Made by a program: the position numbers and the translations under genes
The notes under the pieces: model-generated
What the model saw: only the letters and a program-made list of their open reading frames with translations
Told to the model about the DNA's origin: nothing
Databases searched by the model: none
Source: Escherichia coli
GTDB taxonomy: Bacteria; Pseudomonadota; Gammaproteobacteria; Enterobacterales; Enterobacteriaceae
Length of the DNA stretch: 64,000 nt
Direction: 5' to 3' (one strand)
Assembly: GCF_003790525.1 (NCBI RefSeq)
Contig: NZ_CP033635.1
Part shown: one piece after another, positions 14,237 to 15,592 of the stretch
How positions within the stretch are numbered: the stretch's first letter is position 1
Layout: each line of letters begins with the position of its first letter

Positions 14237-14712
14237 AATCTCCCCTCAAAAAAAACGTATAGCAAATAATATCAATAAGGAAAAATATTATTTTTCAATG
14301 TTTTTTTGTATACAATTCATTTTATGAATGAATTTACAAAGATAGCTGCGCCTGATACCGCTACACTTTTGCCAGACCATGTTCTCCTCTGAGGGAGTAA
14401 CTGGCGCTTTTCATAGAATGCCGTACTTTTTTCAACAACTGCCACATCGAACGGCATTTATGGTGGCGTGAAGTGCCTGCCATAACCGCTCAATGTGGTG
14501 TTCCTACGATGAACAAACCGCTTGATATATTCTCCTGATGCAACCGGACAATATGTTCATGATGGGTATCCCGATACATAAGCCTTCGTTTTATTTTTAC
14601 AAAAAGAAATCGTTGTCGATATTTTATCAAGAAAAAAATAATTCAGGTAAAACGATTCAACTAAAAATAACTAAAATTAATCCCCCGTGAAATATATAAA
14701 TAACGTCAGATG

Positions 14713-14745
14713 AAGAAAGCAAGGGGGGCCCCCCCTTGCTTTCTT
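14713..14745. other. Perfect 16-bp GC-clamped palindrome at the insertion/araC junction
   Basis: aagaaagcaagggggg / ccccccttgctttctt immediately after the araC stop codon. Confidence 0.7.
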
Positions 14746-14746
14746 A

Positions 14747-15592
14747 TTATTCACATCCAGCCCTAAACTCGCTCGGGCTGGCCCCGGTGCATTTTTTAAA
14801 TACTCGCGAGAAATAGAGTTGATCGTCAAAACCAACATTGCGACCGACGGTGGCGATAGGCATCCGGGTGGTGCTCAAAAGCAGCTTCGCCTGACTAATG
14901 CGTTGGTCCTCGCGCCAGCTTAAGACGCTAATCCCTAACTGCTGGCGGAAAAGATGTGACAGACGCGACGGCGACAAGCAAACATGCTGTGCGACGCTGG
15001 CGATATCAAAATTGCTGTCTGCGAGATGATCGCTAATGTACTGACAAGCCTCGCGTACCCGATTATCCATCGGTGGGTGGAGCGACTCGTTAATCGCTTC
15101 CATGCGCCGCAGTAACAATTGCTCAAGCAGATTTATCGCCAGCAATTCCGAATAGCGCCCTTCCCCTTGCCCGGCGTTAATGATTTGCCCAAACAGGTCG
15201 CTGAAATGCGGCTGGTGCGCTTCATCCGGGCGAAAGAAACCCGTATTGGCAAATATTGACGGCCAGTTAAGCCATTCATGCCAGTAGGCGCGCGGACGAA
15301 AGTAAACCCACTGGTGATACCATTCGCGAGCCTCCGGATGACGACCGTAGTGATGAATCTCTCCTGGCGGGAACAGCAAAATATCACCCGGTCGGCAGAC
15401 AAATTCTCGTCCCTGATTTTTCACCACCCCCTGGCCGCGTATGGTGAGATTGAGAATATAACCCTTCATTCCCAGTGGTCGGTCGATAAAAAAATCGAGA
15501 TAACCGTTGGCCTCAATCGGCGTTAAACCCGCCACCAGATGGGCGTTAAACGAGTATCCCGGCAGCAGGGGATCATTTTGCGCTTCAGCCAT
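14747..15592 (-). CDS. araC: Arabinose operon regulator AraC, with altered/shortened C-terminus
   Basis: ORF 14747..15643; start set at [22 protein letters not shown]; C-terminal HTH present; ORF ends ...[10 protein letters not shown], whereas I recall about 11 further residues in K-12 AraC. Confidence 0.93.

Follow-up and report, generated by a model that had tools for sequence, protein, structure and literature searches.

How does the araC gene end in an Escherichia coli genome in which its stop codon runs directly into a perfect inverted repeat, and what is that repeat? The question arose from a stretch of 64,000 nucleotides (hereafter the window), for which the original prediction held that an insertion had overwritten the araC 3′ end, giving a shorter C-terminus and leaving a palindrome that is either the new araC terminator or a recombination/insertion scar. 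A minus-strand open reading frame at 14747 to 15643 contains araC; with the annotated start the gene occupies 14747 to 15592. The elements at its end are the following.

14747 to 15592, minus strand: araC coding sequence, 281 aa, ending ...FRAGCE followed by TAA (PGAP, WP_001361831.1)
14750 to 14764, minus strand: non-K-12 araC codons 277-281 (AGG GCT GGA TGT GAA), a surrogate end that appears to have come with inserted DNA
14744 to 14749, minus strand: tandem stops TAA TAA, common to the class B and class C genomes described below
14713 to 14745, no strand assigned: perfect 16+1+16-nt palindrome, putative bidirectional intrinsic terminator of araC

The perfect 16-bp inverted repeat predicted to follow the end of araC is real. 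The first stop codon, TAA, occupies 14749-14747, and another TAA follows in frame (14746-14744); the palindrome begins 1 nt past the first stop and overlaps the second. K-12 AraC is longer by 11 residues, in agreement with the original prediction (about 11), MG1655 AraC having 292 aa and ending GCE-EKVNDVAVKLS. Alignment with K-12 revealed 11 mismatches in araC nt 1-828, a divergence of 1.3% within an E. coli-type gene body, and a cluster of mismatches that begins abruptly at nt 829, which is codon 277. Codons 277-279 carry four synonymous differences in 9 bp (AGG GCT GGA in the window versus CGT GCC GGT in K-12), and beyond TGTGAA similarity between the two sequences is gone. Codons 277-281 of the window are identical in the genomes of class C, which carry a kinase island. 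These five codons, together with the stop and the hairpin, are part of the non-K-12 DNA.

Inserted DNA is present between araC and yabI, as predicted. Compared with K-12, ~1.82 kb (about 12941-14764), hereafter the islet, is inserted between araC codons 276 and 277. On the far side of the islet the following features were found.

12887 to 12940, minus strand: displaced K-12-type araC 3′ end, codons 276-292 and TAA, now non-coding
12802 to 12886, minus strand: K-12-type araC-yabI spacer, 85 bp, retained upstream of yabI
12037 to 12801, minus strand: yabI (DedA family), directly after araC in K-12
12916 to 12940 and 14743 to 14767, no strand assigned: two copies of the araC end, 1827 bp apart, that form an imperfect direct repeat of 25 nt (76% identity)

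The displaced tail adjoins just upstream of yabI, whose ATG is at 12801. It reads ...gggtgtc TTT TGT GCC GGT TGT GAA GAA AAA GTG AAT GAT GTA GCC GTC AAG TTG TCA TAA, followed by the spacer. From codon 276 to the stop it differs from K-12 araC by a single change, CGT to TGT, and the same piece in other islet-bearing genomes is 98-99% identical to K-12. In this respect the original prediction has to be corrected: the K-12-type end was not overwritten and lies intact ~1.8 kb downstream, at 12887-12940, together with its spacer and yabI. It appears to have been displaced, not destroyed.

The K-12-type tail and spacer hold an inverted repeat of their own, CCGTCAAGTTGTC...GACAATTGACGG, found at 12860-12904 of the window (minus strand) and at 2250-2294 of locus L001, with a folding energy of -22.8 kcal/mol (z -4.25). 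It covers the last araC codons in K-12 and persists in the displaced remnant of the window; its TTGTC...GACAA core is also present in Citrobacter and Salmonella spacers.

The distribution of locus types was determined in 5426 complete E. coli genomes. In 4333 of them (80%; class A) the organization is K-12-like, with a 292-aa araC directly followed by yabI. The short araC end with its hairpin module was found in 1054 genomes (~19%). The islet of the window accounts for 485 of the 5426 genomes (~9%; class B), and the remainder of the 1054, ~569 genomes (class C), contains a 5.6-kb island coding for a PfkB-family kinase, a DHDPS-family protein and TctCBA. The hairpin region of the window at ≥99% identity was present in only 82 genomes. 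An assembly artefact was rejected, since the junction recurs in 485 complete genomes, 82 of them with ≥99% identity in the hairpin region. The idea that this C-terminus and hairpin might simply be the common E. coli sequence is contradicted by the 80% of complete genomes that are K-12-like. A literature search on the araC-yabI island and AraC length returned nothing relevant.

The class C island was also found at the same site in Klebsiella spallanzanii, in a continuous 7.3-kb alignment of 73.6% identity that includes both junctions. Because the alignment runs uninterrupted through both junctions, the island and its junction with yabI are old and native. A recent exchange of the kinase island between E. 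coli and Klebsiella was considered and rejected, because araC and yabI on either side show the same divergence as the island (73.6% identity). Class C genomes carry no remnant of the K-12-type tail, and their right junction is native.

Rare variants of the locus were a fimbrial operon after a 281-aa araC and a class C island truncated by ISKpn26. The former, a chaperone-usher operon, occupies 8847-16843 of locus L006 ('E. coli' SCPM-O-B-8794), where the last ~70 bp of araC are diverged at the DNA level; this fimbrial island had no match in the 5426 complete E. coli genomes. The latter is found in strain 21221 (locus L090, 3110-3125 and 4300-4320), in which the IS5-family element ISKpn26 interrupts araC precisely at codons 276/277 (gagtTTAG|gg), and the annotated AraC is 312 aa long with an IS-derived tail. 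IS5-family elements prefer YTAR targets, and this preference may explain the insertion site. The tetranucleotides flanking the element differ (TTAG, CTAA), and the island has lost its kinase gene along with some of its DHDPS gene, a pattern that suggests an IS-mediated adjacent deletion.

The araC-proximal end of the islet consists of five araC codons, TAA-TAA, and a GC-clamped hairpin between an A-tract and a T-tract. Farther from araC, the islet contains the following features.

14535 to 14712, minus strand: relic of class C, consisting of its leader and of the DeoR-HTH/PfkB kinase gene from the ATG (14579-14577) to about codon 15
14361 to 14500, minus strand: IS630-family transposase remnant, frameshifted and partial, 140 bp (PGAP annotation in identical genomes)
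13385 to 14233, minus strand: hypothetical gene orf282/283, islet cargo
12956 to 13378, minus strand: hypothetical gene orf140, islet cargo

Homology with class C runs from araC to about 14535-14542. The resulting ~230-bp module, common to the window and class C, includes the surrogate codons, TAATAA, the hairpin region, the leader and the start of the kinase gene; the latter begins MYRDTHHEHIVRLHQE... and encodes MYRDTHHEHIVRL in the window versus MYRDTRREYIVRL in class C. Since this homology extends from araC to ~14535, the hairpin and the new araC end in all likelihood descend from the left end of the class C island and were not made by the event that formed the islet. The larger kinase/DHDPS/TctCBA island would later have been cut short beside a copy of IS630, and what follows today is two unrelated hypothetical genes. 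The IS630 remnant has 82% identity to IS630 copies elsewhere.

Neither orf282/283 nor orf140 had a match in Pfam, NCBIfam, PADLOC or PHROGs. Homologues of orf282/283 with 37-46% identity are found on plasmids of Cronobacter, Erwinia (the 2.7-kb pJE05), Pantoea and Enterobacter, and the Cronobacter plasmid homologue is again followed by an overlapping ~142-aa ORF similar to orf140. The pair looks like a mobile two-gene module. The exact orf282 protein always occurs in the same locus context and gives no clue to its source; in APEC O1 the larger gene (orf283) is frameshifted.

The direction and mechanism of the insertion we infer from sequence comparison. That the surrogate end and the displaced tail share one codon as their boundary speaks for a single event. 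Two mechanisms are candidates, each acting on a class A chromosome by way of the homeologous 25-nt araC end: a Campbell-like single crossover and illegitimate recombination facilitated by homology. The K-12-type tail would have been pushed 1.8 kb downstream, to stay before yabI as a non-coding remnant with yabI's upstream spacer. Against placement at one codon in a single event stands the kinase island, with its native right junction and without a tail remnant. A simple site-specific crossover inside TGTGAA was rejected, as the K-12-type synonymous codons sit with the K-12 tail and not with araC. No intermediates of islet insertion were found.

Integrative elements that replace the 3′ end of a gene and leave the native end as a remnant include e14 and phage 21 at icd, and islands at tRNA/tmRNA genes. 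As with these elements, a substitute 3′ end that differs at synonymous sites keeps the gene intact, the native one persists beyond the insert, and an imperfect direct repeat lies on its two sides. The islet differs from such elements in that it has no integrase gene, its repeat is only 25 nt long at 76% identity, its surrogate end alters the length of the protein, and the insert comes partly from another island at the same site. Thus, one mark of an integrase-driven island, direct repeats that include the 3′ end of the gene, is present, and another, an integrase gene in the island, is absent; none was found in the islet of the window, the class C island or the fimbrial island.

Boundaries that coincide at codons 276/277 are the switch between K-12 and island sequence, the start of the displaced tail and the independent ISKpn26 insertion in strain 21221. 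We consider it improbable that these codons are a site-specific hotspot which islands enter integrase-free by means of their own homeologous araC end, stop and terminator. At such a hotspot, Campbell-like or homology-facilitated illegitimate integration may recur at one codon, with the native tail left behind.

The arms of the palindrome, AAGAAAGCAAGGGGGG at 14713-14728 and CCCCCCTTGCTTTCTT at 14730-14745, are 16 nt each and 100% complementary, with a single unpaired C at 14729 between them. In 100 shuffles, no arms matching with ≤3 mismatches were obtained, and the palindrome is not a product of chance. It is the sole perfect short-loop inverted repeat of ≥13 nt within the 64-kb window. The RNA fold has an energy of -30 kcal/mol (z = -5.2), which was equalled by 0 of 200 shuffled sequences.

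The window contains one copy of the palindrome, and the 146 bp around it occur in a median of one copy per genome and a maximum of two. Exact-pattern scans of metagenome and viral collections, which bear only on whether this is a widespread repeat, gave 0 matches. The suggestion that the palindrome might mark other insertion junctions is not borne out in these scans: it is single-copy, with no partner in the window. A megablast search of E. coli genomes with 43 bp of the palindrome returned no match, probably owing to default BLAST low-complexity masking, and is hence uninformative. A repeat of the REP/BIME type was rejected because the palindrome is unique in 64 kb and a scan against Rfam gave only sub-threshold chance matches, with no family reaching threshold.

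Between the two options offered by the original prediction, the fold, the position and acceptance by a terminator scan on both strands favour a terminator over a scar. The hairpin is located directly after the araC stop and is co-oriented with the gene end, with the layout AAGAAA, GC-rich stem, TTTCTT directly 3′ of the stop. A simple terminator scan (stem and T-run criterion) accepted it on both strands, taking GCTTTCTTCA as the run after a 6-bp core stem. When all 16 bp of the stem form, however, TTTCTT pairs with AAGAAA and CATCTG comes next; the T-tract is also interrupted (TTTCTTCAT). A hairpin is found at this same position in four sequence forms.

Window form: perfect, 16-bp arms, -25.6 kcal/mol for the core
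B2-type islet form: one bulge, -21.0 kcal/mol
Class C (kinase island) form: weak, -8.7 to -14 kcal/mol, z -1.4
Klebsiella spallanzanii form: unrelated stem, then TGATTCTTATTT, -17.5 kcal/mol

The class C hairpin is weak, so strong termination would not be conserved in all carriers. Kept position combined with turnover of sequence is the pattern that would be expected of a terminator, unlike an att site.

The hairpin shares with bidirectional intrinsic terminators of E. coli a GC-rich stem, a short loop, an upstream A-tract and a putative downstream T-rich run; like them, it follows directly after a stop codon, is symmetric and reads as a terminator on both strands. Unlike them, it has a T-run broken by C and faces no convergent gene on the other strand. 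Since the neighbouring genes are all co-directional with araC, only activity in the araC sense would matter. The hairpin is most likely a Rho-independent terminator of araC, which would end araC transcription before the islet is entered; the activity is what we infer, and the anatomy, homologies, genome counts and fold energies are what was directly observed. For the reading as a whole, in which the hairpin terminates araC, the last five codons arrived with a small inserted segment and the K-12 end was displaced, we put the probability at roughly 0.7.

The perfect form of the hairpin can be placed by comparison with related genomes. Positions 11436-16045 of the window differ from SMS-3-5 (NC_010498.1), which we take to belong to phylogroup F, by 1 base in 4610, and the window appears to derive from an SMS-3-5-like strain. 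The islet of the window differs from that of APEC O1, presumably a B2 strain, by 0.6%, while the flanking araC, araB and yabI differ by ~3-5%. Because its divergence is low relative to the flanks, the islet seems to have moved between lineages. Of the window/APEC O1 differences, four are clustered in 11 bp of the hairpin (14728-14738).

The B2 form of the hairpin, GAAAG-AAGGGGGGGAACCCCCTTGCTTTC, shares a missing C with the class C outgroup; the window form is GAAAGCAAGGGGGGGCCCCCCTTGCTTTC. Since the B2 form and the outgroup agree in this, the perfect form of the window was apparently derived, recently, from an imperfect hairpin. Every change in the window form raises complementarity, and the perfect form probably arose by one templated quasipalindrome correction. 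Such mutation is reportedly described by the Ripley and Lovett models, in which imperfect inverted repeats are corrected by a strand switch. The present case resembles it in that a clustered multi-base change turned an imperfect inverted repeat into a perfect one; it differs in being a natural polymorphism deduced by comparison and not an observed mutation event.

The main rival to terminator function is that the hairpin is a functionless, neutral relic of the leader of the older island, perfected by templated mutation. The weakness of the kinase-island version would fit this reading, as would the confinement of the perfect form to 82 genomes and the general decay of the islet, with its IS remnant, its truncated kinase gene and, in APEC O1, its frameshifted orf283. 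Against it stand the place right after a stop, with the order of A-tract, stem and T-tract that a terminator requires, and the retention of a hairpin here in four forms, one of them with an unrelated stem; we consider this explanation unlikely.

A recombination/insertion scar, be it an att-like site, a terminal inverted repeat or the product of hairpin-end repair at islet insertion, has much less to recommend it. The palindrome does lie ≤20 bp from the point where K-12 similarity ends and ~210 bp from the IS630 remnant, at a locus that is a hotspot with at least four alternative contents. The K-12 breakpoint itself, however, is at codons 276/277 (araC nt 826-829), upstream of the palindrome, and both flanks of the palindrome are continuous with the kinase-island module. 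Moreover, a scar is at odds with the single copy in the window, the lack of exact matches in the metagenome and viral collections and the ≤2 copies per genome of the surrounding 146 bp; the islet has no recombinase gene, only the frameshifted 140-bp IS630 fragment; and in K. spallanzanii this place is taken by a different hairpin. These comparisons make a scar very improbable and largely refute it already. Least credible of all is an operator, not an RNA element, bound by a protein such as the older island's kinase with its fused DeoR-type HTH: the dyad is perfect and lies in the leader of a gene whose product begins with a DeoR-like HTH, but it is ~130-170 bp upstream of the kinase-gene start and abuts the araC stop, it is degenerate in genomes that still hold the regulator gene, with no conserved half-sites seen in class C, and that gene is gone from the window.

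The surrogate end completes AraC as a protein of 281 aa. The original prediction of a shorter C-terminus holds relative to K-12, by 11 residues, but the shortness is not an artefact of the insertion, 281 aa being the usual length. AraC stops right after GCE in ~60 loci from at least 15 genera, including Citrobacter (freundii group), Salmonella enterica subsp. arizonae, Klebsiella, Kluyvera, Raoultella, Kosakonia, Enterobacter, Cedecea, Yokenella and others. AraC of S. Typhimurium has 281 aa, with which the S. arizonae locus agrees. Thus AraC of Salmonella, the Citrobacter freundii group, Klebsiella and others has the same length and the same last residues as that of the window, followed by a stop; compared with these, the body of the window gene is E. 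coli-type and only the last five codons are of the foreign type. The 292-aa form was found in class A E. coli, E. albertii, cryptic Escherichia and the C. amalonaticus/sedlakii group.

The coding tail of K-12, GAAAAAGTGAATGATG...TCATAA, can be aligned with the DNA beyond the stop in Citrobacter and Salmonella, TAAAAAGTGAATGATG...TCATAA, and the two are clearly homologous: GAA AAA GTG AAT GAT G... TCA TAA in the former corresponds to TAA AAA GTG AAT GAT G... TCA TAA in the latter. The 11 extra residues of K-12 look like the outcome of a stop loss, TAA to GAA, with read-through into former spacer codons. On this most parsimonious reading the K-12 tail is the derived state, 281 aa being the usual enterobacterial AraC length.

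Residues 1-281 of the window AraC are 100% identical to K-12 AraC (tblastn). The chains of PDB entries 2ARC and 2K9S are fully covered by it, and the chain of 2K9S, the AraC DNA-binding domain, comprises residues 175-281 exactly. Pfam AraC_binding and two HTH_AraC domains match a protein identical to the window AraC. The 281-aa protein includes the complete arabinose-binding/dimerisation domain and the whole DNA-binding domain with both HTH motifs. Since 2K9S ends at residue 281 and identity to K-12 is complete up to that residue, the shorter C-terminus should be harmless.

The original prediction is supported in part, and the feature is a case of ordinary genome plasticity, in which a strain-variable islet and a decayed IS accompany a terminator-type hairpin. 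AraC and PBAD are heavily used tools in bacterial genetics, and AraC length is polymorphic in E. coli: a 281-aa, 'Salmonella-length' AraC is present in about one-fifth of complete E. coli genomes, including 536, APEC O1 and Nissle 1917. Primers, recombineering arms and annotation transfer based on the K-12 araC-yabI junction will fail or mislead in such strains.

Two ~6.5-kb contigs, assigned to Photorhabdus namnaonensis (L007) and Xenorhabdus szentirmaii (L008), code for an AraC with 100% identity to that of K-12, the K-12-type tail included; rather than native genes, both probably represent araC-PBAD vector sequence within the assemblies. In Kluyvera genomosp. 3 YDC799 (L080), araC appears to be frameshifted near codon 174 and is likely a pseudogene.
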